A stretch of 33,094 nt of DNA from a virus (Duplodnaviria; Caudoviricetes). A program made the translations under genes and the position numbers. This document shows, piece after piece, positions 3,454-17,290 of the stretch. The stretch spans positions 1-33,094 of IMG/VR virus record IMGVR_UViG_3300036793_000015; one strand, given 5' to 3'. How positions within the stretch are numbered: the stretch's first letter is position 1; every line of letters begins with the position of its first letter. The notes under the pieces were generated by a model. The model was not told where the DNA came from. It was given only the letters and a program-made list of their open reading frames with translations, and did no database searches.

Positions 3454-3871
3454 GGGAATCCCTAAGGACGGCAGTAAGGGTGGCCGTCCGCCTAAGACCA
3501 TTAACTGGATCGAGTTCGAAAAACTGTGCCGCATTCAGTGCACTCTTGAGGAAATTGCCGCCTACTTCGAAGTCACCCCGGAACTTATTGAGCGGAAGGT
3601 AGTTGAAGAGAAACAAACAACTTTTAAAGAATATTTCGGGGCAAAACATGGCCTCGGGAAAATTAGCCTTCGCCGGAAGATGAATCAGCTCGCCCTCAAG
3701 GGTGACAGAACCATGCTGATCTGGTTGAGCAAGAACAGATTAGGGATGCGAGACAAGCACGAACACTCAGGCCCAGACGGAGGGCCAATCCCCGTGAGCC
3801 TCGAAGGCGCGCAAGCGGCACTCGCCGATATGCTTGCGGAAGTGGCGTCTAGGAAATCCGAAACCAAGTGA
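3446..3871 (+). CDS. terS: Terminase small subunit
   Basis: GGRP N-terminal motif, HTH (CTLEEIAAYFEV), MLIWLSKNRLG, C-terminal HEHSGPDGGPI; coupled to terL. Confidence 0.85.
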   Translation: MPKGIPKDGSKGGRPPKTINWIEFEKLCRIQCTLEEIAAYFEVTPELIERKVVEEKQTTFKEYFGAKHGLGKISLRRKMNQLALKGDRTMLIWLSKNRLGMRDKHEHSGPDGGPIPVSLEGAQAALADMLAEVASRKSETK

Positions 3872-5430
3872 CAACGGAACTCTTCCCGCTTGACGAGATT
3901 AAGGCGCTCATGCCGTTCATGACGGTAGAGGAAACGCTGCGCGTCATTAAGCTCGTCAAGGTCATTCAGTTGTCCGCTCCGCCTCCAAAGCCAGTGTCCG
4001 AATTGGACATGCTGAACATGGAGATGGATCTAGCGGCATTCTTTCGTGCGGCTTGGACGATACTCGAACCTGGCAAGCCCCTACTTTGGTCATGGCATTA
4101 TTCGCTGATCGCTGAATATTTGACCTTGGTAGCGCAAAAGAAATTGCGGCGGCTGATAATTAATGTTCCGCCGAGGACCGCCAAAAGCGCCTATGTTACC
4201 AAGTGTTTCCCTGTTTGGATGTGGTTGCAAAATCCCGCTGTCTCGTTCCTGTTCGCTTCATATTCATCCGCCTTATCAACAGATCATTCCGTAGACCGTC
4301 GCAACCTGATTCAGTCGCAATGGTTTCAATCTCTGTGGGCTGACAAGTTCCAACTCGCCCCTGATCGAAACCTCACCACACAGTTCTCGAACGACAAAAT
4401 GGGTCAGATGGTAGCGACCTCGACTGGCTCCGGAGCAGAGGGCCGCGGCGGGGATATTGTCATTCTCGATGACCCAATGTCCAACAAACAGGCATTGTCG
4501 GATACCGAGCGCTATGCCGCGAATCGCTGGATATCGGCCACATTGAAACAACGCCTAAACGATCCAGCGACGGCCGCAATCATTGTGGTCATGCAGCGAC
4601 TTCACGAGATGGACACAACGGGCTACGTGCAAAAGGAAGACCCTGGCATGTGGGCAAAGATCGAATTGCCCCTCGTGGCTGAGAAGGATGAGCGCTGGGA
4701 GTTCCCCATCTCCGGACGAGTCGTTACGCGCAAAGAGGGTGACGTTCTTCAGCCTGAACGCTTTACCCCAGAGATTGTTAAGGAAAAGCAGGCCGACCGC
4801 CTTGTTTACGCTGGCCAGTACCAGCAGCACCCCACGCCGCTCGAGGGGAACCTGATCAAGCGCAGCGACATCAAGTATTACGGTGGAAGTGATCCGCTAA
4901 CCGGGGAGCGGGATGAGTCTTTGCCGGAAATCTTCGACAAGAAACTGATCAGCGTGGATTGCGCGTTCAAGGAAACCAAGACCTCTGATTATGTAGCTAT
5001 TGGAGTTATCGGCGTCAAAGGCCGCAAGCGATTCATTCTCGATATCGTCAACGAGCATCTTGATGTCATCGCAACCGAGTCAGTAATCCGCCGCAAGCGT
5101 GAGCAGTATTCAAACAAAGACGGATATGTTTCCGCCATCTTGGTTGAGGACAAAGCAAATGGGCCGGCCGTAATTCAGCGCCTTCGCCAGAACGTTACCG
5201 GAGTGATCCCTATTGAGCCTCTAGGCGGGAAGATCGCCAGGTTCTGTGCAGTGGCCCCGGAATGGCAATCTGGTGATTGGTACGTAGACCGAGCGGCCGC
5301 ATGGACGGAACCATTCGTACGGCAAATCACCATGTTTCCAATGGCCGAAAACGACGATATGGCCGACTGTATGTCACAGGTTGGGATTCACCTCGGAACC
5401 ACCAATCTCTCCGTATGGGCGAACCTGTAA
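3868..5430 (+). CDS. terL: Terminase large subunit
   Basis: Walker A INVPPRTAKS, Walker B IVILDDP, coupling motif VVMQRLH, nuclease motifs SVDCAFK...SDY, VEDKANG, DDMAD. Confidence 0.97.
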   Translation: MTTELFPLDEIKALMPFMTVEETLRVIKLVKVIQLSAPPPKPVSELDMLNMEMDLAAFFRAAWTILEPGKPLLWSWHYSLIAEYLTLVAQKKLRRLIINVPPRTAKSAYVTKCFPVWMWLQNPAVSFLFASYSSALSTDHSVDRRNLIQSQWFQSLWADKFQLAPDRNLTTQFSNDKMGQMVATSTGSGAEGRGGDIVILDDPMSNKQALSDTERYAANRWISATLKQRLNDPATAAIIVVMQRLHEMDTTGYVQKEDPGMWAKIELPLVAEKDERWEFPISGRVVTRKEGDVLQPERFTPEIVKEKQADRLVYAGQYQQHPTPLEGNLIKRSDIKYYGGSDPLTGERDESLPEIFDKKLISVDCAFKETKTSDYVAIGVIGVKGRKRFILDIVNEHLDVIATESVIRRKREQYSNKDGYVSAILVEDKANGPAVIQRLRQNVTGVIPIEPLGGKIARFCAVAPEWQSGDWYVDRAAAWTEPFVRQITMFPMAENDDMADCMSQVGIHLGTTNLSVWANL

Positions 5431-5603: not shown

Positions 5604-5865
5604 GACGTTCGAAGTTAAATCCTATTGTTTGCGAGGAGAATCGAACGCCAGAGCGGGGCTGGGAATCGACTCTTGGTTTCCAGCCTTTTCCCAAAAATAG
5701 ATTAGGACCATGAAACTACCCCACGCCATTAATTCCCCGTATGTTCCACCACCGAATGATCTACAGGCTCCGGGGAACCTTTCGGCGGAGAGCCGAGCTA
5801 TGGCTGGGTAGTGGCACTCGCCATACTTGTATTCGCATTAATTGTGGCATGTTCCCACAACTGAA

Positions 5866-8022
5866 ATGGCCCGTTCGGTTAAATCCGTAGCAAAGCAGGC
5901 GTTGAAGGCAGATGAGAAGCTGCGCGCCAAGAATGCCACGACCAGCACGCAAGACTCGTTCCAGAACTTCAGCGCGAAACTCGGCATTGGCACCGCGAAC
6001 ATGTCGAGCGGGGCCACCTACGGCCTGAACGCGCTGACACGGCAGCGCACGCTGCTCGAGTGGATTCACCGCGGAACGTGGATAGGCGGCTTGGCCGTCG
6101 ACATCGTAGCGGACGATATGACCAAGCGCGGCATAGACATACGCGGGGATATCGATCCTGAGCACATTGATCATCTGGCGCGCGCCGCGGTCTCGTGGAA
6201 GATATGGCAAGCCATTAACTCAACTATCAAGTGGGCGCGGCTGTACGGCGGCGCGCTGGGCTTCTTGTTGATCGATGGGCAAGACCCCAAGACTCCGCTG
6301 CGGATCGAGACGATCAGGAAGGGTCAATTTAAGGGCATGCTGGCGCTCGACCGCTGGATGGTGGAACCAGACCTATCGAACCTTGTCACCGATCTCGGCC
6401 CGGAACTTGGACTGCCGAAGTATTACCACACCAACACCATGGCTCCGGCCATGCCTAATGCGACTATTCATCATTCCCGATGCCTGAGGATGGTTGGCAT
6501 CCAGCTTCCCTACTGGCAATCACTGATGGAAAACCTGTGGGGCATCTCGGTTATTGAGCGTCTTTATGATCGCATGGTAGCATTCGATTCTGCCTCGCAA
6601 GGCGCTGCGCAACTTGTTTATAAGTCATATCTTAGAACGGTAAACATTAAAGGCTTGCGTGAACTAGTAGCTGCTGGCGGCCCAGCTTTGGACGGCCTCG
6701 TGAAGTACATGGGGATGATCTCCAGTTTCCAGTCGATTGAAGGACTCACGATTCTCGACGGGGATGACATATTCAATGCCAGCAGCGCAGGCGGGAACTC
6801 AGCGCGTGGCCTTGCTGATCTCTTGTTGTCATTCGGTGAGCAGTTGAGCGGTTCCCTGCAAATCCCACTTGTTCGGTTATTTGGCCAATCGCCGCGTGGC
6901 ATGAACTCGAGCGGTGAATCGGAACTGAGGACCTACTACGACGGCATCAACATGCAGCAAGAGCAGTTCCTGCGGGTTGCGGTGACCATGATCTACCGCT
7001 GCCTTGCTGCGAGTGAGGGCATAACGCTCCCAGAGGGCTTCTGGTTCGACTTCCGGCCATTGTGGATACTGGATGATCTCCAGAAAGCGCAGGTAGCAGC
7101 GACTACGTTCTCTGCAATCGCTCAACTGGATCAAGCTGGAATCATTGACCGTGCTACTGGGTTGAAGGAAGTTAAACAATCGTCCAAGATTACCGGCATT
7201 GGGACTAACGTTTCCGATGAAGCTATCAAGGAAGCTGAGCAGGAGCCGCCACCATCGGCACAGGAAATGCTGTCCATGGAACAACAAAAACAGGCCATGG
7301 AAGAGGGGCAAGAGCCTGAGTCTCAACAGTCTAAAAAGACTCAATTGAATAAGTCTAATAAGACCAATAAGACTGGAAAGACTGTCGGAAAGACGAAAGA
7401 CAGGATGCTTGGCGATGTGGAAGTCTTTGGTTTGCCGGTAGTTATAGAGCACCTGAAGGGCGAAGAGCGCTATGGTGTCCGGCTGCCTGCCGATTACGGC
7501 TACATTCGCGGTACAGACAGCTCGGAGCGGGGAGAGCAGATGGACTGCTTTATCGGCCCTGACCCAAATGGCCTTATTTTCATCGTGGATGCGTATGACC
7601 GGTTTACCGGGGAATACGATGAATCGAAGATACTTATGGGCTTTGCGAGCGCGCAAGTCGCCCGAATGACCTTTTGGCAGTATTACGGGATGATGCCGCA
7701 GCAGCAGCTTGTCGGGAACGTCTATGACCCAGTTACGGCGGATGAGTTGAAGCGCTGGCTGGCTACCGGGGATGTGACTAAGCCGTATATTGAGCCCACG
7801 TATGTGGGGTACGTTTCGGCAACTTCAGATGCAAGCCAAAGGTGCGACCACTGCCAGAACTACGCCTCTGGCCTGTGTGCTGATCCTGCCGTCCAGCGCG
7901 ACCCGCGCGTGCCGTTCTCGTGGGACAGCCAAAACAAGAGCGTCTCGCCGGCTGGCTGGTGCACGCAGTTCATGACTAAAACCTCGTATTCAGGAAGGCG
8001 GGACGATGCTGCCACCTCGTAA
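5866..8022 (+). CDS. DUF1073/HI1409-like portal protein fused to a pyrophosphatase-like domain and a HiPIP-like domain
   Basis: Portal motifs VDIVADDMTKRG, WARLYGG, IHHSR, IPLVRLFGQSPRGMNSSGESE..YYD; then LPADYGYIRGT...DESKILMGF; then CDHC...C...GWC. Confidence 0.92.
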   Translation: MARSVKSVAKQALKADEKLRAKNATTSTQDSFQNFSAKLGIGTANMSSGATYGLNALTRQRTLLEWIHRGTWIGGLAVDIVADDMTKRGIDIRGDIDPEHIDHLARAAVSWKIWQAINSTIKWARLYGGALGFLLIDGQDPKTPLRIETIRKGQFKGMLALDRWMVEPDLSNLVTDLGPELGLPKYYHTNTMAPAMPNATIHHSRCLRMVGIQLPYWQSLMENLWGISVIERLYDRMVAFDSASQGAAQLVYKSYLRTVNIKGLRELVAAGGPALDGLVKYMGMISSFQSIEGLTILDGDDIFNASSAGGNSARGLADLLLSFGEQLSGSLQIPLVRLFGQSPRGMNSSGESELRTYYDGINMQQEQFLRVAVTMIYRCLAASEGITLPEGFWFDFRPLWILDDLQKAQVAATTFSAIAQLDQAGIIDRATGLKEVKQSSKITGIGTNVSDEAIKEAEQEPPPSAQEMLSMEQQKQAMEEGQEPESQQSKKTQLNKSNKTNKTGKTVGKTKDRMLGDVEVFGLPVVIEHLKGEERYGVRLPADYGYIRGTDSSERGEQMDCFIGPDPNGLIFIVDAYDRFTGEYDESKILMGFASAQVARMTFWQYYGMMPQQQLVGNVYDPVTADELKRWLATGDVTKPYIEPTYVGYVSATSDASQRCDHCQNYASGLCADPAVQRDPRVPFSWDSQNKSVSPAGWCTQFMTKTSYSGRRDDAATS

Positions 8023-8215
8023 CGCCCCCCTCTTCTTCGACCTGCTTCCATCTCTTCCGGGGGATGTTCCGTTAGGTCAGATGGTCGCATGTCCAGCCGT
8101 AGACGGTGACATGATCTTTTTCAACGGGGCCGCGTCTCTGGTGTTGGAATACCCGAACGGCGAACTTCGGTTTACGCCCCCATCTTGTATCGGCAGCAAG
8201 GAGTCGGGAAATTGA
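8006..8215 (+). CDS. Hypothetical protein
   Basis: Overlaps the portal stop; coupled to the next ORF. Confidence 0.5.
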   Translation: MLPPRNAPLFFDLLPSLPGDVPLGQMVACPAVDGDMIFFNGAASLVLEYPNGELRFTPPSCIGSKESGN

Positions 8216-8391
8216 ATACAGTCGTAGCAACCCTAAGCTTCCAGCGCTCAGTCGGTGATTTAAGCATTGAGCGAACCATTAAGCTGGAACTCCCAGCATC
8301 GTTCAGTGATGGAGAAGTTAGGAACGCGATCCGCCTCGGCTTTGAAGAACTGGAACGCCAAGACGGGCCACCAAAGGAATCGGCAAAGTGA
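8212..8391 (+). CDS. Hypothetical protein
   Basis: TTG overlaps the previous TGA, AAGGAG upstream; stop overlaps the MuF GTG. Confidence 0.5.
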   Translation: MNTVVATLSFQRSVGDLSIERTIKLELPASFSDGEVRNAIRLGFEELERQDGPPKESAK

Positions 8392-9167
8392 GCGGCATTG
8401 CCACGCTCGACGCAAGGGCAACATACCGTCAGGAGCGCCTACGTTTCGCCCGTTCCCGCTCGGTTGAGAGAACCTATGCCTCCAGGCTGTTCTCTGTGGC
8501 CCGTCAGATAGGGGCAATCATTCGCGGCTTCGCTCCAGATGGTGTGACTGACCTCAGCGGCTTCTTTCAACTGCGTGAGACGCTTAACCGCTACGCGGAA
8601 ATCCTACTGCCATGGTCAAGGAAAGTAGCCGAGGACATGGTAAACGAAGTCGCGCGCAAGGATGCTTCGGCTTGGGAAGAGCATGGCCGGAAGATGGGCA
8701 GAGCCTTGCGGAAGGAACTCGCGCACGCGCCCACGGGCGAGATATTGAAGCAGTACCTAGCAGATAATGTAGATCTCATCACCAGCCTACCAAGGGTCGC
8801 AGCCGAGCGTGTTCACAAATTGACACTGGAAGGATTAAGCCAAGGTGTCCGGGCAAATGAAATCGCTAAGGAAATCTTGCGCAGTGGGCATGTCTCGGCG
8901 TCAAGGGCTCAGCTTATCGCTAGGACGGAAGTGGCGCGCACGGCCTCAGGGCTGACTATGGCTCGGGCGAAGTATGTCGGAAGCACTCAATATTCGTGGG
9001 AAACGGCCCGTGACAGCGACGTAAGACCACTACATCGCAAACTACAAGGCAAGGTTTTTGATTGGGACGATCCGCCTGTCACCGGAGAAAACGGAGAGCG
9101 ATCGCTGCCGGGCGGAATCTACCGATGCAGGTGCGTAGCCTACCCGATCATCCCCGACCTTGAATGA
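8388..9167 (+). CDS. MuF / SPP1 gp7-like head morphogenesis protein
   Basis: NVDLITSLP, RAQLIARTE, YSWETARDSDVRPLH, PGGIYRCRC. Confidence 0.95.
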   Translation: MSGIATLDARATYRQERLRFARSRSVERTYASRLFSVARQIGAIIRGFAPDGVTDLSGFFQLRETLNRYAEILLPWSRKVAEDMVNEVARKDASAWEEHGRKMGRALRKELAHAPTGEILKQYLADNVDLITSLPRVAAERVHKLTLEGLSQGVRANEIAKEILRSGHVSASRAQLIARTEVARTASGLTMARAKYVGSTQYSWETARDSDVRPLHRKLQGKVFDWDDPPVTGENGERSLPGGIYRCRCVAYPIIPDLE

Positions 9168-9207: not shown

Positions 9208-9609
9208 ATGCCAACTCCATCGTATAACCAAACGTCGCTAGTTACACTTCCAGGTCTGTCGGGAGTGGTTGGGCAAAACATCAACAGCGCGAACATGGAT
9301 ACCGTTACTGACGGGATCACGGCGCAGCATACGTCTCCATCGCAGGCAACCGGGACGTTGCTCGTCTCCAAGATGAACCGGGTAACGACGGTCACAAGCG
9401 CCAATGATGCGGTAACCATCGGTGTTGCTGCCGTTCCCGGCGTCTCGTTAGCCGTGCGCAACAATGCCTCAGCTAACTCAATGAATGTCTATCCTGCGGT
9501 TGGCGACAAGATCAATGCGTTGTCAGCCAATGCGGCATTTGCGATGGCCGTTGCAGACGCCACTGTTGTGTTCCGTTGCTTTACGGCTGGAACTTGGTTG
9601 ACCACGTAA
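9208..9609 (+). CDS. Putative beta-rich virion/decoration protein
   Basis: AAGGGAG RBS; Thr/Ala/Val/Asn-rich composition typical of phage structural beta proteins. Confidence 0.65.
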   Translation: MPTPSYNQTSLVTLPGLSGVVGQNINSANMDTVTDGITAQHTSPSQATGTLLVSKMNRVTTVTSANDAVTIGVAAVPGVSLAVRNNASANSMNVYPAVGDKINALSANAAFAMAVADATVVFRCFTAGTWLTT

Positions 9610-9833
9610 TGCGCGTCAACGGGCAGTTGCGGTTGAGCTCTCGGGAGCGAGAAGTCATCCGCGCCGTTGTAGACGATTGCTTGTCCATGCAGGAAGCTGC
9701 CGCAAAGTTCTTCGTGTCGAAGCACACCATCGAAACCCACCTGAACAACATTTACTCGAAACTCGCTGTGCGTTCCAAGGTAGAACTCGCACGCTGGTAC
9801 TGGAATGAAGGACGCAATGGAACAGCCAATTAA
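9609..9833 (+). CDS. Stand-alone LuxR/GerE-type HTH regulator (74 aa)
   Basis: LSSREREVI...EAAAKFFVSKHTIETHLNNIYSKLAVRSKVEL; ATG overlaps the upstream TAA. Confidence 0.9.
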   Translation: MRVNGQLRLSSREREVIRAVVDDCLSMQEAAAKFFVSKHTIETHLNNIYSKLAVRSKVELARWYWNEGRNGTAN

Positions 9834-9978
9834 TCTGTGTTGCAGTTGCGGCGAGATTCCGTCCGACTGTCAATGTTTCAACTTGCCAACGCGCTCAACA
9901 GATGGTGAAGGAGGTTCAGATGATTGTCATCTTGTCGTTGCTGATAGCAATTTGCGGCCTGTTGCTGTATGCGCTTAG
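9817..9978 (+). CDS. Small Cys-rich protein (MEQPINLCCSCGEIPSDCQC...)
   Basis: GAAGGA RBS and overlap with the LuxR stop; also overlaps the next gene by 59 nt, so uncertain. Confidence 0.4.
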   Translation: MEQPINLCCSCGEIPSDCQCFNLPTRSTDGEGGSDDCHLVVADSNLRPVAVCA

Positions 9979-10090
9979 CGCCAATCCGCGCGTAGGCGAG
10001 ATTGGTCGTATCATGTTTTTCTGTGGGTTGTTCGTGTTTCTGCTCCAGTTCGGCCAAGGGGCGGTCTTGAACCTGTTTCCACACAGATAG
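9920..10090 (+). CDS. Small two-TM membrane protein
   Basis: GAAGGAGG RBS; two hydrophobic helices; stop overlaps the sigma factor GTG. Confidence 0.75.
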   Translation: MIVILSLLIAICGLLLYALSANPRVGEIGRIMFFCGLFVFLLQFGQGAVLNLFPHR

Positions 10091-10644
10091 TGACTCACGA
10101 AGAAAAGCTCGTCGCATTCGAGGCACTGTTGGCGCAAGGCACCATGATGCAGTGGAAGATCGCACTGCGATTTATGAAGAACGAAGCGGATGCCGATGAT
10201 TGCGTTCAGGATGCGCTTCTCGCTGCTTACCAGAAGATTGACCAATGGCGCGGGGATGCCAGCATTAAGACATGGTTCACGAGCATTGTGTTGAACCAGG
10301 CCCGGCAGAATTTGCGGTGCCGAGACAGTGCGAACTTCAAGGCGTGCTTGCCGTTGGATGATGAGATCGCCCGCGACTTGCGTTGTAAGAAGCCCAATGC
10401 GGAGCAGGTTTTACTACAAGAAGAAAAATACGAAATCATCTCGAAAACTGTCGAAGCCCTCCCCGCAGTACTTTACGAAACGATCAAGCTGAGTATTGTA
10501 TTGGAACTTTCGGTATCGCAGATAATGCGCAGAAAACGCATAAGCATCCCGGCTGCGAAGTCTCGGTTATATCGTGCTCGACGCTTGGTAATTACGAGGG
10601 TGCGAACGCAGATGCAAAATGAGCAGTGCTACACAGCGAGCTGA
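10090..10644 (+). CDS. ECF-type RNA polymerase sigma factor
   Basis: Region 2 ALRFMKNEADADDCVQDALLAAY...TWFTSIVLNQARQNLR; region 4 ending AAKSRLYRARR. Confidence 0.92.
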   Translation: MTHEEKLVAFEALLAQGTMMQWKIALRFMKNEADADDCVQDALLAAYQKIDQWRGDASIKTWFTSIVLNQARQNLRCRDSANFKACLPLDDEIARDLRCKKPNAEQVLLQEEKYEIISKTVEALPAVLYETIKLSIVLELSVSQIMRRKRISIPAAKSRLYRARRLVITRVRTQMQNEQCYTAS

Positions 10645-10819
10645 GTTTCTGGCTCTTGACAGACTGATAATCGCTTTCCGACGCTTGATTTCCATTGAAC
10701 ATAGTGAATATGACGAGAAGGTCTACCGGGATCGGTTCTATGCCTATGAGCGAGCGGCGGCTAACTTTATGGAAGCTTACAAGGACAACGTGGAAGGAGG
10801 TGACCGTGAGAAAACTTAG
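10619..10819 (+). CDS. Hypothetical protein
   Basis: Helical 66-aa ORF overlapping both neighbours. Confidence 0.5.
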   Translation: MSSATQRAEFLALDRLIIAFRRLISIEHSEYDEKVYRDRFYAYERAAANFMEAYKDNVEGGDREKT

Positions 10820-13085
10820 CATCTTGTTGCTGTTCTGTTTCTCCGCGCTTGCGTTGGCTCAAGTCAACAATGGCTCAGTATCAATTACGACTACAGGCGA
10901 CACGAAGAAAATCACGAACTTGTATGGAGGTTTGATCGGAACATTTGAAGAGGTTCCGACTGGAACGGTCTCGGCAGTGTCCATTACGATCCAAGGCTGC
11001 ATGAAGAATGGAACCTGCGATACGGCCGCCGATACCTACACCGGAACGACTGCCGCCGTCAGGAGCGTGAATTTTACCAAGGCGTACACTTATTACCTGA
11101 TTACAGCCACGTGGACGGGCTCAGGAACGTGGACGGTAAATTATTCCGTGACAACGGCCCAGAATGGAAACTCCGGTGGAGGGGCAGTCAGTTCAGTATT
11201 CGGGCGCACTGGCGCAGTTGTGGCGGTCAGCGGAGATTATTCGTGTGCTCAAGTAACGGGCTGCACGACGGCAGCGTTTCAAGCGAATGGCACGCCGCTT
11301 ACTTCATCGGCTACGATCAACTTTCAAAACTCAGCGGCCTTTAATGGGCTTACCGCGACGTTTGCGAATCCGTCAGCAGGGAACGTGCAACTTGGATTTA
11401 GTGGAACGCTTGGGCCGAGCGGTATAGGAACGCTCGTAGCGGGATCGAACGGCCTAGCAACTTCCGCTACGACAGACACTACTAACGCAACGAACATCAG
11501 TTCGGGAACGCTCAATTGCGCCCGCGAACCTGCTTACACTGGCGATGCAACCAGTACGGCTGGTACCTGCGCAACAACAGTGGGCGCGTTGAACGGTACC
11601 AGTTTAGGGGGACTTTCGACAGGCATATTGAAAAACACAACCGGAACGGGCGTGCCTTCTATTGCAGTAGCGGGGGATTTCCCTACGTTGAACCAAAATA
11701 CAACCGGTACATCAGCCAACTTGAGCGGCACGCAGACCGCGAATTTCTTCTACGCAGCGCCGAATGGCTCTAGTGGCACGGGAGCTTGGCGCGCGATCGT
11801 TGCTGCTGACATTCCGACCTTAAACCAAAATACTACAGGGACAGCGTCAAATCTCAGTGGCACTCCAGCTTTGCCAAACGGAACCACGGCTACGACGCAA
11901 ACTGCCGGAGATGTAACCACAAAAATCGCCACAGACGCTTTTGTCAGTACCATCTTTGCAGCGCCTCCTGGAATCGGCTCAACGACTCCAGCTTCAGGCG
12001 CGTTCACAACAGCGACAGCCAGCACTTCGATGACTAGTAGCACCTTCTACGGACTAAGCATCGCAGGTGCGGTGCAGATTTGCGGATCAAACAATGTTAA
12101 CTGCACGCAGTCATTTGCGGGTCAGCTGGGCTCCATGCTGATCGACGGCGCGCATAACTCATCGGTAAACGCTTCTGCCAATGCTGGCCCACTTCTTTTA
12201 ATGGGAGGCGTTCTCAACTCCACTCCGAATGCCGCTTCCCTCGAAGGAGCAATACAGATAGCCGCTGGCTACCTTAAGGGAACCACAATTACAGCCATTG
12301 GAGACATAGAGTGCGGAACGACCACTGCTTTCACGGTCACCGATTGCCCTGTCGGAACAGGAAACGTGATTGGGATAGCAGTTAAAATTACGAACCCCGT
12401 GGTTGTGGTTACCCACGGGACAGTCCCGGTTATCTTGGATAACACGGCGACTATAGGCGATTTTATTTGCAAAAGTTCTTCGGTGGCGGGTCAAGGTCAT
12501 GACAATGGCACGGTGCCATGCCCTCCAATGACACCGGAGATTGGAGTCGTAATCGCCGTTGCTGGAACGCTGCCTGGGCTTACTGGAATAGCTTCCGGGA
12601 CAACTGTCCTCTCCACTTCGCTCCCTGAAGTTGAACTGCATATTGGAGGTCAAGGGGTATCGCAGTCCGGAGCAGTTAATTCGACGGGGCAAACTGCTGC
12701 AATCTCCACCGCAACTCTTTGCGGCGCGACCTCCGATGCTTGCAATATTGCGGGTCAGTACCATCTCCACTGGAATTTCTGGGGATCAGGAACGGCGTGT
12801 TCTAGCGTCACGGCTGGTTCAGTGACTTTTCTTTTGACGTGGACAGATGAGAATGCGGTCGCTCACTCGGCTGTAGCGTTACAAATGATGGCCCAAACCG
12901 GAGCAGCTACTTCAGCCATGCAAGCCAGTTTCCCATTCCAAACTGCTCTGGCCAACGAGTCGGCAAGCGGAGATTTTACGTTCTCGACGAACGGATCGAT
13001 TGTGCAGTACGCGACTGGCTATACGGCGTGCACAACGGGAACGGGAACGTACAACTTAAGGGCGGCGGTCACAAGAGTGCAATGA
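10806..13085 (+). CDS. Fibre-like Thr/Gly/Ser-rich protein with N-terminal signal peptide (759 aa)
   Basis: GGAGGTGA RBS before GTG 10806; MRKLSILLLFCFSALALA|QV; fibre-type motifs VSSVFGRTGAV and TQTAGDVTTKIATDAFV; 16 Cys in the mature part. Confidence 0.85.
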   Translation: MRKLSILLLFCFSALALAQVNNGSVSITTTGDTKKITNLYGGLIGTFEEVPTGTVSAVSITIQGCMKNGTCDTAADTYTGTTAAVRSVNFTKAYTYYLITATWTGSGTWTVNYSVTTAQNGNSGGGAVSSVFGRTGAVVAVSGDYSCAQVTGCTTAAFQANGTPLTSSATINFQNSAAFNGLTATFANPSAGNVQLGFSGTLGPSGIGTLVAGSNGLATSATTDTTNATNISSGTLNCAREPAYTGDATSTAGTCATTVGALNGTSLGGLSTGILKNTTGTGVPSIAVAGDFPTLNQNTTGTSANLSGTQTANFFYAAPNGSSGTGAWRAIVAADIPTLNQNTTGTASNLSGTPALPNGTTATTQTAGDVTTKIATDAFVSTIFAAPPGIGSTTPASGAFTTATASTSMTSSTFYGLSIAGAVQICGSNNVNCTQSFAGQLGSMLIDGAHNSSVNASANAGPLLLMGGVLNSTPNAASLEGAIQIAAGYLKGTTITAIGDIECGTTTAFTVTDCPVGTGNVIGIAVKITNPVVVVTHGTVPVILDNTATIGDFICKSSSVAGQGHDNGTVPCPPMTPEIGVVIAVAGTLPGLTGIASGTTVLSTSLPEVELHIGGQGVSQSGAVNSTGQTAAISTATLCGATSDACNIAGQYHLHWNFWGSGTACSSVTAGSVTFLLTWTDENAVAHSAVALQMMAQTGAATSAMQASFPFQTALANESASGDFTFSTNGSIVQYATGYTACTTGTGTYNLRAAVTRVQ
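11676..11864 (+). repeat. Internal 19-aa duplication in the fibre-like protein
   Basis: DFPTLNQNTTGTSANLSGT (11676-11732) and DIPTLNQNTTGTASNLSGT (11808-11864). Confidence 0.9.
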
Positions 13086-13558
13086 TGCGGAAACTGTTTG
13101 CGTTAATCGTTGGTTGTGTACTGATAGGTTTTGTCCTAGCCGATTTGGTTGACTTGCACTCACATATGGTGCAAGCCGATTCCACGAGTTACGCCCTCGG
13201 TTCTGGGCAGTCTGGATTTGTTTCCTGCACTTAGGCTACTCCGTGCGCTTCGAGCGCGACGACAATTTACGTTACTCCGGTTACGACTTTATATCGTGTT
13301 GTTGCCGCTATTGCCTGCACTTCATCTACGGCAACCGCAACCGCTATTCTGGCGATTAAATACACCGATCCAAGCAGCACGGTGCAAACGGTAACCCTGG
13401 CCACAGCGACCTGCACCACTTTAGGAGTTGCTTCGGTGGCGAACATGAATCAAGAAGTGGTGGCAATTACCGGAACAAATATTCAGTACAGCGTAACAGT
13501 GGCGAACTCGCCGAGTTATCAGGCCCGTGTGGCGGTGTATCAGGAAGGCATGAATTAA
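13082..13558 (+). pseudogene. Exported beta protein interrupted by one in-frame TAG (13232-13234)
   Basis: Hydrophobic N-terminus MMRKLFALIVGCVLIGFVLA; frame stays open for 107 more codons after the TAG, to TAA 13558 just before the next RBS. Confidence 0.75.
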
Positions 13559-13572
13559 GGAGGATATAGAGA

Positions 13573-13959
13573 ATGAAACATCAACTATGGCTCTGGGGCT
13601 GGTTCTTTATGGGAGCGCTAATGTACTGGCTGAAGAGAGCTTTCTACCTCGTGACTGGGCCAAATCCGATAGCTAATACTTATGGCCAGTTCATCCAACG
13701 TTGCTGGATACCATTGATCGTCCGCTTCTTTCTCGACTCCCTTGTGTTCTGGGCGCTGTTTACCCCTGGATTCGCCGACAAGGCTCTTAACTATCTCGGT
13801 TGGTCAAGCTTTGCATGGGCAGTGCAGATGGTCACACAGTTCGCCGTGTTCGCGGCCGTGTTCGGGCATACAGTCGATTCAGGCATGGATTTTGCAGTCA
13901 GTAAAGTCCCGTGGATTAAAGACGTTCTTCCGCAAATGCCGCCGCCGCTAAAGACTTAA
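13573..13959 (+). CDS. Multi-TM membrane protein, candidate holin
   Basis: AAGGAGG RBS; about three hydrophobic segments; upstream of the endolysin. Confidence 0.6.
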   Translation: MKHQLWLWGWFFMGALMYWLKRAFYLVTGPNPIANTYGQFIQRCWIPLIVRFFLDSLVFWALFTPGFADKALNYLGWSSFAWAVQMVTQFAVFAAVFGHTVDSGMDFAVSKVPWIKDVLPQMPPPLKT

Positions 13960-14022
13960 CCATGATACCCGCAGGCCCGAACGTCAATGAAAGGAAGCCA
14001 GTGATCTCGGGCAACAAGGACA

Positions 14023-14250
14023 ATGGTTCATGACTGGACTGCAACTAGCGTCAACGGCCTACTCGGTCTCGCGTGTACTGGTCTGTGTTGGCTTGTTAAG
14101 CGTATTTTTAACCGCGTTGAAAGGTTATTTTCTGATAAGAAAGTTGACCGGGAAGCGATTATCTGTCTCGCAGAGTACCTTGCTATGCGAAGCGATTTCC
14201 AGTTCCCCCGCCATTTACACAACCGAATATTCGACCAAGGGGATCGCTAG
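14023..14250 (+). CDS. Small single-TM protein (holin/antiholin-like)
   Basis: AAGGA RBS; N-terminal hydrophobic segment then charged helix. Confidence 0.55.
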   Translation: MVHDWTATSVNGLLGLACTGLCWLVKRIFNRVERLFSDKKVDREAIICLAEYLAMRSDFQFPRHLHNRIFDQGDR

Positions 14251-14683
14251 TGTCGTTCTCATGTCGGTTTTGATCTCGCTGACTTCTTTTGGGATAAGCG
14301 TTTGGCTCTTGTACGACAGATTTGCAAGGCAGGAGTTAGTCAAGCTCGAAGATGTGCACGTACTGGAAAGATTCAATGGCCAGGATTTTTCAATGGAAGT
14401 GCAAACGCAACCCGGAAATGGAGACTGGAAAACATTCTCGGCGCATACCTGTGACCCGCTTGACAATGAAGTTGTCGATGGAGTCACGATGCTCGTTTTC
14501 TACTATGTAGTCGATAGCGGACTCGACTGTTTCGACTGGAAAGCGAAGCACGCAGGCTACACGTTATGGAGAGATCATGCGAATAAACCGATCGTTGGAA
14601 GTCGACCACCCGCCGCACACTCCCACTCCAACCCCACAACCGAAGCAGCCGAAACCAGACCCACAACCGCCGAAGGACGGTGA
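14030..14683 (+). CDS. Membrane-anchored hypothetical protein; start uncertain (14030 or 14261)
   Basis: TM segment SVVLMSVLISLTSFGISVWLLY followed by a globular domain with two Cys. Confidence 0.55.
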   Translation: MTGLQLASTAYSVSRVLVCVGLLSVFLTALKGYFLIRKLTGKRLSVSQSTLLCEAISSSPAIYTTEYSTKGIASVVLMSVLISLTSFGISVWLLYDRFARQELVKLEDVHVLERFNGQDFSMEVQTQPGNGDWKTFSAHTCDPLDNEVVDGVTMLVFYYVVDSGLDCFDWKAKHAGYTLWRDHANKPIVGSRPPAAHSHSNPTTEAAETRPTTAEGR

Positions 14684-14689
14684 GTAGCA

Positions 14690-15097
14690 ATGGATGACTT
14701 GCAGCGCGAGACGGAAGTAGCGCAGGTGTTACTCCGTCTCGCGCCTAAGATCATCGAGCAGTTGCACGAGGGAATCGTGATTGTCGATGACCATCTTGAT
14801 ATTCGCTTTGTGAACGGTTCGGCTGAGTTCCTGTTTGATTATCACCGCGACCAGTTGATTGGGCAGAACATCAACGTGCTTCTTCCAGAGCGATTCCGGC
14901 AAAAGCATTCTGAATACACGTCACACTATGTTGAGCGCCCTTCGCCTCGCACGATGGGCAGAGGGATCGCGCTATTCGGGGTCAATAGCAAGGGTCGCGA
15001 GTTCCCAGTTGAAATAAGTCTCTCGCCGTTTAAGACCATTCTCGGAACATTTGTGGTTGCGGTCGTACATGCGAAAGAAGTCGAACGTGAATTGTGA
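14690..15097 (+). CDS. Stand-alone PAS domain protein, FixL-like
   Basis: EGIVIVD...IRFVNGSAEFLFDY..DQLIGQNINVLLPERFRQKH...MGRG..LFG..SKGREFPVEISLSP; no output domain. Confidence 0.93.
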   Translation: MDDLQRETEVAQVLLRLAPKIIEQLHEGIVIVDDHLDIRFVNGSAEFLFDYHRDQLIGQNINVLLPERFRQKHSEYTSHYVERPSPRTMGRGIALFGVNSKGREFPVEISLSPFKTILGTFVVAVVHAKEVEREL

Positions 15098-15363
15098 CCA
15101 TACTGGAGTACGACGGCGTAAAGGAGATCGGACTCGGGGCAGCGCTGATGATGGCGCTATTGATCGTAAAGGAGACGGTGGCCGGGTTATTGAGACGAAG
15201 AAACGGTAACGGACACACAACAGTCAGTAGTGGCGATCTCCCGAAAGAGTACTGGGAGAAGAGATTCGACCAGCACGATACTAAACTCGAAAATGTTCAT
15301 AACGATCTGCGCGACATTAAGGCTTCGGTCATGATCCTGATTCGATGGAAGGGTGGAGATTAG
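15094..15363 (+). CDS. Single-TM plus coiled-coil protein, candidate holin
   Basis: TM IGLGAALMMALLIV; coiled C-terminus; overlaps the PAS stop and the endolysin start. Confidence 0.6.
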   Translation: MTILEYDGVKEIGLGAALMMALLIVKETVAGLLRRRNGNGHTTVSSGDLPKEYWEKRFDQHDTKLENVHNDLRDIKASVMILIRWKGGD

Positions 15364-15850
15364 ATTGAACGAAATTAGTGAGCAACGATTGGCCGAAGTC
15401 CATCCGCACTTAGCGAGGATTATTCGTATTCTGGCCTCCGATATGGAGGTGAATTATAACGAACCAATCCAAGTCGAACAGGCATTCAGGAACTGGGCCA
15501 CGCAAGAAAAACTATGGGAAAGTGGCCGAACCGCGCCGGGGCCGGTAGTTACGCATGCGCGGCCTGGACATTCATGGCACGAATTTGGATTGGCAGTTGA
15601 TGTCTGTCCTTTGTCGCTTCTGTCAAAACCGAACTGGGATTACAACTCTCCGCTTTGGCTGAGGCTCGGAGCGCTCGGAAAATCACTCGGACTCTTTTGG
15701 GGCGGCGACTTTGTACACTGCTCGCCCGATCGGCCTCATTTTCAGTTGACTGGTGTGTTGCCTGTATCGCCTGACGACGCAACGCGGCTGCTATTTCAGC
15801 AAGGTGGAATACAGGATGTTTGGGACGCGACAGGCTTAAGTCTGAGTTAG
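15353..15850 (+). CDS. Endolysin, M15-family metallopeptidase (CwlK/Ply500-like)
   Basis: FRNWATQEKLWESGRT.PG.VVTHA, SWHEFGLAVD, WGGDF, DRPHFQL. Confidence 0.93.
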   Translation: MEIRLNEISEQRLAEVHPHLARIIRILASDMEVNYNEPIQVEQAFRNWATQEKLWESGRTAPGPVVTHARPGHSWHEFGLAVDVCPLSLLSKPNWDYNSPLWLRLGALGKSLGLFWGGDFVHCSPDRPHFQLTGVLPVSPDDATRLLFQQGGIQDVWDATGLSLS

Positions 15851-15883: not shown

Positions 15884-17290
15884 ATGCTCGCCAAAACCAA
15901 TTTCTACACCACTGAGAAGATCGGGAACACCCTTCATCTCACTCCAGAAAAGTACCTCATTTGCGAAAACGTTCCTATCGCGCGTACCGGAGAAATGCTT
16001 TACAGCCCCCAAGAAATCCTGATCGCCTCGAACGGAACGCTGCACCTGAATCCTCCTGATGGAATTGTCAGAGTCACTCGAGATAGCGACGAAGTGTTCC
16101 GCAAGGAAACAATCGAGAGTATTCAAGGGAAACCAATTGTCGATGGCCATCCAGATGAAGACGTGGATGTTGATAACTGGAAGTCATTGGCGAAGGGGAT
16201 CGTTATTAACCCACGGCGTGGCCAAGGGGCGGACGATGATCTCTTGATCGCCGATTTCATCGTAACGGACAGCGATGCCATTAAGGCGATCTTGAATGGC
16301 ACAAAAGAAGTTTCCTGCGGCTACACCTGTGATTACGAAAAGATCAGCCACAATGCCGCCCGACAACGCATGATTCGTGTTAATCATGTTGCTTTTCTCG
16401 ATGCAGGTCGTTGCGGCCAGCGCTGTTCGATCGGTGACAAAAAGACTGTTGATAGACCAGTTAGAAAAACCAGGAGGACTGTAATGAAGTGGTTTGACAA
16501 GCTCAAAAAGGCGGTAGACAGCGGCGATCAGTCTGCAACCGCTGCCGTGATCGAGGAGATCAGCGAGACGGCAACGGACAGGCCCGAAATTCACACTCAC
16601 GTGCATCTGCGTGACAACGAGAAGGAAAAAGAGAAAGAAGAAGAAAAGAAGGAGACCCATGACTCGACCATGGACGCGATGTCGAAGGACATCAAGACCA
16701 TCAGGGACGCCGTGGGATCGATGGATGAGCGGCTGAAAAAGGTCGAGGGCAAGTTCCACGACGAAAGCGAAGAAGAGAAAAAGAAGAAAGAAGAGGAAGA
16801 GAAGGAGAAGGAAGGCAAGAAAACTGAGGATGACGAGATCGAGTTTGAAGCCGAGGCCCCTGCCGGCAGCGGTGACAAGGCTTGGAAGAAAACCAAGGAC
16901 TCGGCATTCATGGCCGAATCTTGGCAGGAGATGGTGTCCATGGCAGAAATCATCATGCCGGGGATTCAGGCTCCAACCTTCGACGCCAAGATGGACAAGG
17001 GCAAGACGCTGGACGCGTTCTGCGCTTTCCGGCGTCGCGTTCTCGCCAAGGCCTCGGACACTCAGCCCGATGTGAATGTCTACCTCGACAGTATTACCCG
17101 CAATCGGACTCTCGACAAACTGTCTTGCGGGGAAGTACGAACTGCCTTCAACGCTGTAGCGAGCATGAAGCGCGCGCTCAACAACGACTCGCTGCGTCCG
17201 GGAGAACGGACTCAGTTCGTTGGCAAACCCGTGGGAGCAATTAACTCGATCGCCGAACTGAATAAGCGTAATCAGGAACTTTACAAGTAG
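15884..17290 (+). CDS. DUF2213-domain prohead protease/scaffold
   Basis: TPEKYLICENVPIARTG, GKPIVDGHP, EVSCGY, NHVAFLDAGRCG..CSIGD; Glu/Lys-rich linker; C-terminal scaffold helix. Confidence 0.93.
   Translation: MLAKTNFYTTEKIGNTLHLTPEKYLICENVPIARTGEMLYSPQEILIASNGTLHLNPPDGIVRVTRDSDEVFRKETIESIQGKPIVDGHPDEDVDVDNWKSLAKGIVINPRRGQGADDDLLIADFIVTDSDAIKAILNGTKEVSCGYTCDYEKISHNAARQRMIRVNHVAFLDAGRCGQRCSIGDKKTVDRPVRKTRRTVMKWFDKLKKAVDSGDQSATAAVIEEISETATDRPEIHTHVHLRDNEKEKEKEEEKKETHDSTMDAMSKDIKTIRDAVGSMDERLKKVEGKFHDESEEEKKKKEEEEKEKEGKKTEDDEIEFEAEAPAGSGDKAWKKTKDSAFMAESWQEMVSMAEIIMPGIQAPTFDAKMDKGKTLDAFCAFRRRVLAKASDTQPDVNVYLDSITRNRTLDKLSCGEVRTAFNAVASMKRALNNDSLRPGERTQFVGKPVGAINSIAELNKRNQELYK

Follow-up and report, generated by a model that had tools for sequence, protein, structure and literature searches.

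The portal protein of an uncultured soil phage, encoded on the linear 33,094-base viral record IMGVR_UViG_3300036793_000015 (CheckV completeness 46%; the whole record is called the window below), carries a C-terminal tail made of a family I pyrophosphatase fold (InPase) and a four-cysteine domain related to high-potential iron-sulfur proteins (HiPIPs). On balance, we lean towards a reading in which this tail enters the prohead, is cut from the portal after the motif T-K-D512, and remains in the head as free cargo, probably with a bound [4Fe-4S] cluster. The portal open reading frame (ORF) occupies 5866..8022 on the plus strand (718 amino acids (aa) from ATG 5866, 726 aa from TTG 5842; product P0001), and from either start it stays open through portal, InPase and four-Cys domain to the stop at 8020-8022. 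The portal core (6067..7119, +) is of the HI1409 type, as judged from its profile scores (PF06381, aa 68-418, E 2e-86; TIGR01555, 198.6 bits, barely over the cut-off of 196.25; phrog_146, aa 19-506) and from the position of the gene between those for terminase and MuF. C-terminal of this core the sequence forms a Gln/Lys-rich linker (7273..7392, +). A first-pass annotation of this DNA had placed portal, pyrophosphatase-like and HiPIP-like segments in one gene, and every motif that it quoted is present in the open frame. It had also known of no portal-HiPIP fusion. We likewise found no description of a HiPIP-like iron-sulfur domain on a phage portal or capsid in the open-access literature, and HiPIP is not named in the main text of the Iyer papers (including PMC5512222). 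What appears to be new is the HiPIP-like domain among portal-borne cargo; portal- and MuF-borne cargo enzymes as such are known.

The same order of portal, InPase and Cys domain occurs in a single frame in six more proteins (P0002, P0003, P0004, P0011, P0022 and L010, the last a 5'-truncated copy), with tails 45-49% identical to that of the window in the three homologues measured. A missed stop before 7405, which the annotation had named as a possible refutation, is therefore unlikely. The reads of one public run covered 5700-8500 at a depth of about 9 with zero differing letters and zero indels. As this was the only public run carrying the DNA, and the window may itself derive from it, its support is not independent, and this is the one circumstance that would favour an assembly or sequencing artefact. 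We consider an artefact almost vanishingly improbable: it is refuted by the six homologues, and a separate portal-InPase-HiPIP fusion with another, short HiPIP subtype (L024) repeats the order.

The last part of the protein is a four-Cys domain of what we call the DPxVP-insert subtype (7795..7986, +; aa 644-707, 64 residues). Its cysteines, at aa 660, 663, 671 and 699 (codons at 7843, 7852, 7876 and 7960), are spaced C-x2-C-x7-C-x27-C and follow the HiPIP order CxxC...C...G[WY]C. When close relatives of the domain were aligned (A3, 12 rows), no row departed from the four cysteines, the upstream Tyr, DPxVP, K-x-V or GWC; one relative left out of A3, P0012, has GGC in place of GWC. When the A3 profile was searched against the PDB, HiPIPs accounted for 13 of the 17 hits at E<=10 (top two, E 0.036 and 0.048). 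A second alignment, A4, was gathered independently by a pattern scan of viral contigs for short HiPIPs, which gave at least 120 loci (about 500 stretches by estimate) with the domain in frame in 119 of 120. A4 contains 106 distinct viral domains, of which 47 match PF01355 at E<=0.001; its profile found PioC at E 3.1e-14, and all 12 of its PDB hits were HiPIPs. A4 had been picked out with a HiPIP-shaped pattern, so part of its likeness to PioC comes from the selection itself, a bias that a shuffle control addresses: the window domain scored 23.0 bits on the A4 hidden Markov model, while 2000 shuffles with the cysteines and GWC held fixed reached at most 21.6 (mean 5.1). In hhalign the two alignments matched each other at 97.5% (E 6.7e-12), and a single insert separated Cys3 from the GWC strand. 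Linked in this way via A4, the window domain shares with short HiPIPs (PioC, PDB 6xyv; 3h31; 1isu; family PF01355) the arrangement Tyr...CxxC-x-x-aromatic...C...GWC-x-x-aromatic, and the aromatics matched to PioC are the Tyr before CxxC, the Tyr at Cys2+3, the Trp before Cys4 and the Phe at Cys4+3. In HiPIPs, these aromatics around the Cys ligands are the residues that shield the cluster. Judged on sequence, the HiPIP likeness of the window domain exceeds chance.

Several observations pull the other way. By itself the window domain had no match in profile searches, PF01355 included (gathering cut-off 22 bits), and PF01355 matched 5 of the 11 members of set A1 weakly, with a best E of 0.037. 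The Cys3-Cys4 spacing is 27 in the window and 26 in most homologues against 12 in PioC, and the 15-residue insert has its own invariant DPxVP. A fold search with a low-confidence model of the domain gave no fold match. Classical HiPIPs are exported periplasmic carriers with a signal peptide, whereas this domain lacks an export signal, would therefore be synthesised in the cytoplasm, and forms the C-terminus of a virion protein. Given the insert, the missed PF01355 cut-off and the model without a fold match, we do not file it as a HiPIP. The evidence supports a remote HiPIP homologue outside the PF01355 family, so that of the earlier HiPIP claim the relationship stands and the family membership does not. 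The same insert, missing matches and cytoplasmic synthesis would also suit a HiPIP-descended domain that binds Zn or another single metal, or that is merely a small stable fold; it would then be a passenger of head proteins, a tag for structure or protein binding that takes no part in redox chemistry. We regard this as rather unlikely, for the cluster-shielding aromatics match PioC position for position and zf-CCCH matched just one of 11 members, weakly. Should the cluster prove real, there would be a redox cofactor in phage heads and a function for a small domain found in an estimated 500 or so viral stretches.

T4 gp21 offers an analogue of motif-directed head maturation. In the window, the predicted processing enzyme is a T-x-D-rich DUF2213 head maturation protease-scaffold (15884..17290, +; Pfam, phrog_530), and its predicted site T-K-D512 (7393..7401, +), which the first-pass annotation had overlooked, is placed such that a cut would release the InPase and Cys domains together. 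A [TSAV][KR]D motif sits 12-17 residues N-terminal of the InPase xIEH motif in 9/9 Cys-linked proteins. Another predicted cut, T-Q-D30 (5947..5955, +), lies near the N-terminus of the portal, where 7 of the 10 proteins examined have an x-x-D|S[FI] junction. The protease-scaffold and the N-terminus of the major capsid protein (PF09950; 17974..19056, +) are crowded with T-x-D, the capsid having four [TS]-x-D sites within residues 1-37. Overall, T-x-D occurs 21 times in the 2072 residues of five window head proteins and 18 times in 6498 residues elsewhere (p 6e-5); T-x-E and T-x-N are not enriched in the window head proteins. Within-protein shuffles gave 9.1 where the window has 21, and 20.2 where related head proteins have 38, and 0/1000 reached either count. 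Two points temper these motif findings: in related loci, head and non-head ORFs did not differ significantly (p 0.19), and the motif was picked after viewing the data, in proteins that are related to one another. Some carriers of the Cys domain are themselves XkdF-like prohead proteases (see below); they have no T-x-D[SAG] but instead an excess of V-x-K-[AG] (9 vs 2.5), as a different protease code would predict.

Phage TLS (T1-like) carries DUF2213, PF09950 and PF06381, the same protease, capsid and portal families as the window. The Edman N-terminus published for the TLS capsid is ASDMGIW (PMC11447400), and this maps to residue 28 of gp36 (L145:7088-8062), immediately after K-N-D27. That paper surmises that 45 residues are removed; the Edman read instead maps after Asp27. 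TLS gp33/gp36 pair a DUF2213 protease with a PF09950 capsid whose mature N-terminus follows Asp. In Pa193, residue 66 is the first one modelled in the capsid, and A-M-D64-S65 precedes it. The window differs from TLS in that its preferred site is T-x-D, which also flanks portal cargo, and in that its cuts are known as predictions from sequence. Because the site is found in 9/9 Cys-linked proteins and the TLS N-terminus follows Asp, the DUF2213 protease likely releases a 23-kDa InPase-Cys cargo after T-K-D512, which would give this little-studied protease family a defined predicted cut site. Two related observations concern candidate sites elsewhere. At L002:3914-4966 (+), a 351-aa low-complexity protein between terminase and portal resembles a polyprotein punctuated by cut sites, with nearly all of its 11 Asp in x-x-D-[AVESK] words (TRDA, GQDA, AQDA, ARDA). 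Within the window Cys domain, just before CxxC, a T-S-D-A word (7822-7833) that is unconserved in homologues would be a candidate for a second cleavage if it were exposed.

The tail might also remain uncut, tethered to the portal by its flexible linker, or a free InPase-Cys protein might be made from an internal Met (aa 514). The portal of Pa193 bears on this: residues 529-765, InPase included, follow the C-terminal barrel and have no density (PMC11456595), and this invisibility fits a flexible tether as well as it fits a released tail. Internal initiation gains some ground from a Met two residues past the Asp at 4 of the 5 DNA loci checked, with weak anti-Shine-Dalgarno pairing of -2.0 to -3.9 kcal/mol. 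Yet the Asp is retained where the Met is absent (L006, P0002), the same motif recurs in the scaffold and at the N-termini of both portal and capsid, and the TLS capsid matures after Asp with a protease of the same family; we therefore think either version unlikely. In a further alternative, the tail works during assembly, for example by sensing pyrophosphate (PPi) or redox state at the portal and adjusting packaging accordingly, and is discarded later with the scaffold. Its fusion to assembly proteins (portal, protease, MuF) is in keeping with such a role, as are stand-alone relatives that adjoin terminase genes, although a terminase or portal neighbour (E<=1e-12) at 8 of 30 stand-alone loci, with 58 of the 90 picked neighbours scanned, is not clearly above chance. 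We find this alternative quite improbable: in portals generally the C-terminus points into the head and not towards the terminase, the domain shifts freely between unrelated proteins, tail proteins included, and many portals of the family have no such tail (TLS, vB_EpM_ZHS).

The InPase domain itself (7411..7794, +) is recognised by PF18823 at aa 516-632 (65.9 bits vs a cut-off of 26.8), and its conserved end reaches about aa 643. Modelled with AlphaFold2, the portal tail was predicted confidently across most of aa 516-632, and in a Foldseek search with the model against the PDB every match listed was a family I pyrophosphatase (PPase), with a best E of 6e-4; Foldseek also matched viral InPase domains. 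TM-scores were low, at about 0.3 for the two-domain model. The likeness to family I pyrophosphatases thus came out as the first-pass annotation expected. With these enzymes the window InPase shares the fold, the last motif Asp, YG[YF] and DExK, and it also keeps the Glu of xIEH; it differs in being a shorter phage form with two of the three motif aspartates replaced, R-G-E-Q-M-D standing where active family I PPases have the metal-binding D-x-D-x-x-D. The last motif Asp, YG[YF] and [DN]ExK are present in 18/18 InPase rows. Both first aspartates of the motif are kept in 6/7 other rows and in 0/11 Cys-linked rows (two near-duplicates included), which makes canonical pyrophosphatase activity of the Cys-linked InPases doubtful. 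Five of the 11 Cys-linked copies show E-x-x-[DE]-x-x-D, in which an insertion of one residue might put an acid back and so compensate, and L024 retains DGDRVD. The change from DGDPxD to RGEQMD noted earlier is thus real and common to the Cys-linked clade; the inactivity suggested with it is not established, given the conserved residues and the possible compensating acid.

Portal-InPase fusions are already known. Phage InPase domains fused to a portal, such as BcepF1.124, were described by Iyer et al. 2017 (PMC5512222), who propose action on PPi or nucleotide signals after an injection that is itself only predicted. The Pbunavirus-like proteins (BcepF1.124; Pa193 gp19, PDB 9b41) share with the window a PF06381 portal, a linker and a PF18823 InPase, in modules that both include a DUF2213 protease and MuF. 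Pa193 gp19 ends at its InPase and has DGDEVD and DEHK, whereas in the window the Cys domain follows and the two motifs read RGEQMD and DESK. A tblastn search with the tail against 50,697 phage records matched 467, including 293 from Pseudomonas phages. The window portal also bears an enzyme-type domain fused to a head protein, the mark of portal- and MuF-borne cargo in Iyer et al. 2017.

In the mechanism that we favour, cleavage and release inside the head, the dodecameric portal would bring twelve tails into the prohead, as its copy number implies. The DUF2213 protease would then cut after D512 and free aa 513-718 (23.1 kDa, isoelectric point 4.7) inside the head, and the Cys domain would bind a [4Fe-4S] cluster. 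The function of the cargo is the least certain step and is weakly held: it may travel with the DNA, the Cys domain transferring single electrons or carrying iron and the InPase part perhaps binding PPi or the phosphates of nucleotides, which it would hydrolyse weakly or in an altered way. Cultured phages exist for each half, Pa193 for portal-InPase and S-SRM01 for a short HiPIP-like gene.

The Cys domain is not specific to portals, since proteases and MuF carry it too. XkdF-like prohead proteases (L003, L004, L005, P0016; L004 and L005 match PF14550 and phrog_9427 weakly) and a MuF protein (P0017/L016) have the DPxVP subtype close to their N-termini. In P0013, InPase and Cys domain follow an unrelated N-terminus, and a 121-aa protein that could not be placed, P0025, carries the domain as well. 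No cultured phage with this subtype was present in the annotated phage collection. PF06381 portals (L024, L035) carry the short subtype, as do a different portal (L084), DUF2213 proteases (L027, L044, L107, L141) and 2H-containing proteins. Outside heads, this subtype lies within cytidylyltransferase-like proteins and at the start of a tail-protein family (phrog_5939, laminin-G-like in some; L030, L031, L033, L045, L049, L051, L058), so the domain may occur outside the head too. By sequence context, then, it is a mobile cassette reused on several kinds of head protein. A broader idea, which we hold only tentatively, is that HiPIP-type [4Fe-4S] modules are loaded into heads via portal, MuF or protease and released by the head protease, here as one unit with a PPase fold repurposed to bind phosphate or nucleotide, to form a redox reservoir that might protect packaged DNA or alter host redox or nucleotide signalling at injection.

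Small stand-alone genes make up 68 of the 120 short-subtype copies, and 25 of these 68 are of the type seen in the cultured Synechococcus phage S-SRM01, where a 67-aa 'hypothetical protein' (L144:4959-5162; MW015081, QPX48026) passes the PF01355 cut-off with 23.7 bits. Two HiPIP-like genes stand in tandem in L098, and one ORF at L085:377-4261 joins HiPIP-like, 2H-like and RNA polymerase beta-like domains. The XkdF-like carriers L003:3125-4837, L004:5668-7194 and L005:2032-3885 have DUF6582, and two have a ChaB-like N-terminus (weak Pfam match, L005 only).

By Pfam, the morphogenesis module of the window is of myovirus type. The terminase large subunit lies 5' of the portal (3868..5430, +; Pfam), and a MuF / SPP1 gp7-like minor head protein is encoded at 8388..9167 (+; Pfam and phrog profiles), in which the same kinds of profile scan detected no cargo domain. 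A 6.6-kb block (9208-15850, +) separates MuF from the protease. It encodes a sigma-70-like factor (10090-10644), a Thr/Gly-rich protein of 796 aa, a PAS domain that stands alone (14690-15097) and, as an endolysin, an M15 peptidase (15353-15850). Shortly 5' of the packaging genes, an IS1595-family transposase (PF12762 plus a Zn ribbon) is encoded on the minus strand at 1670-2662.
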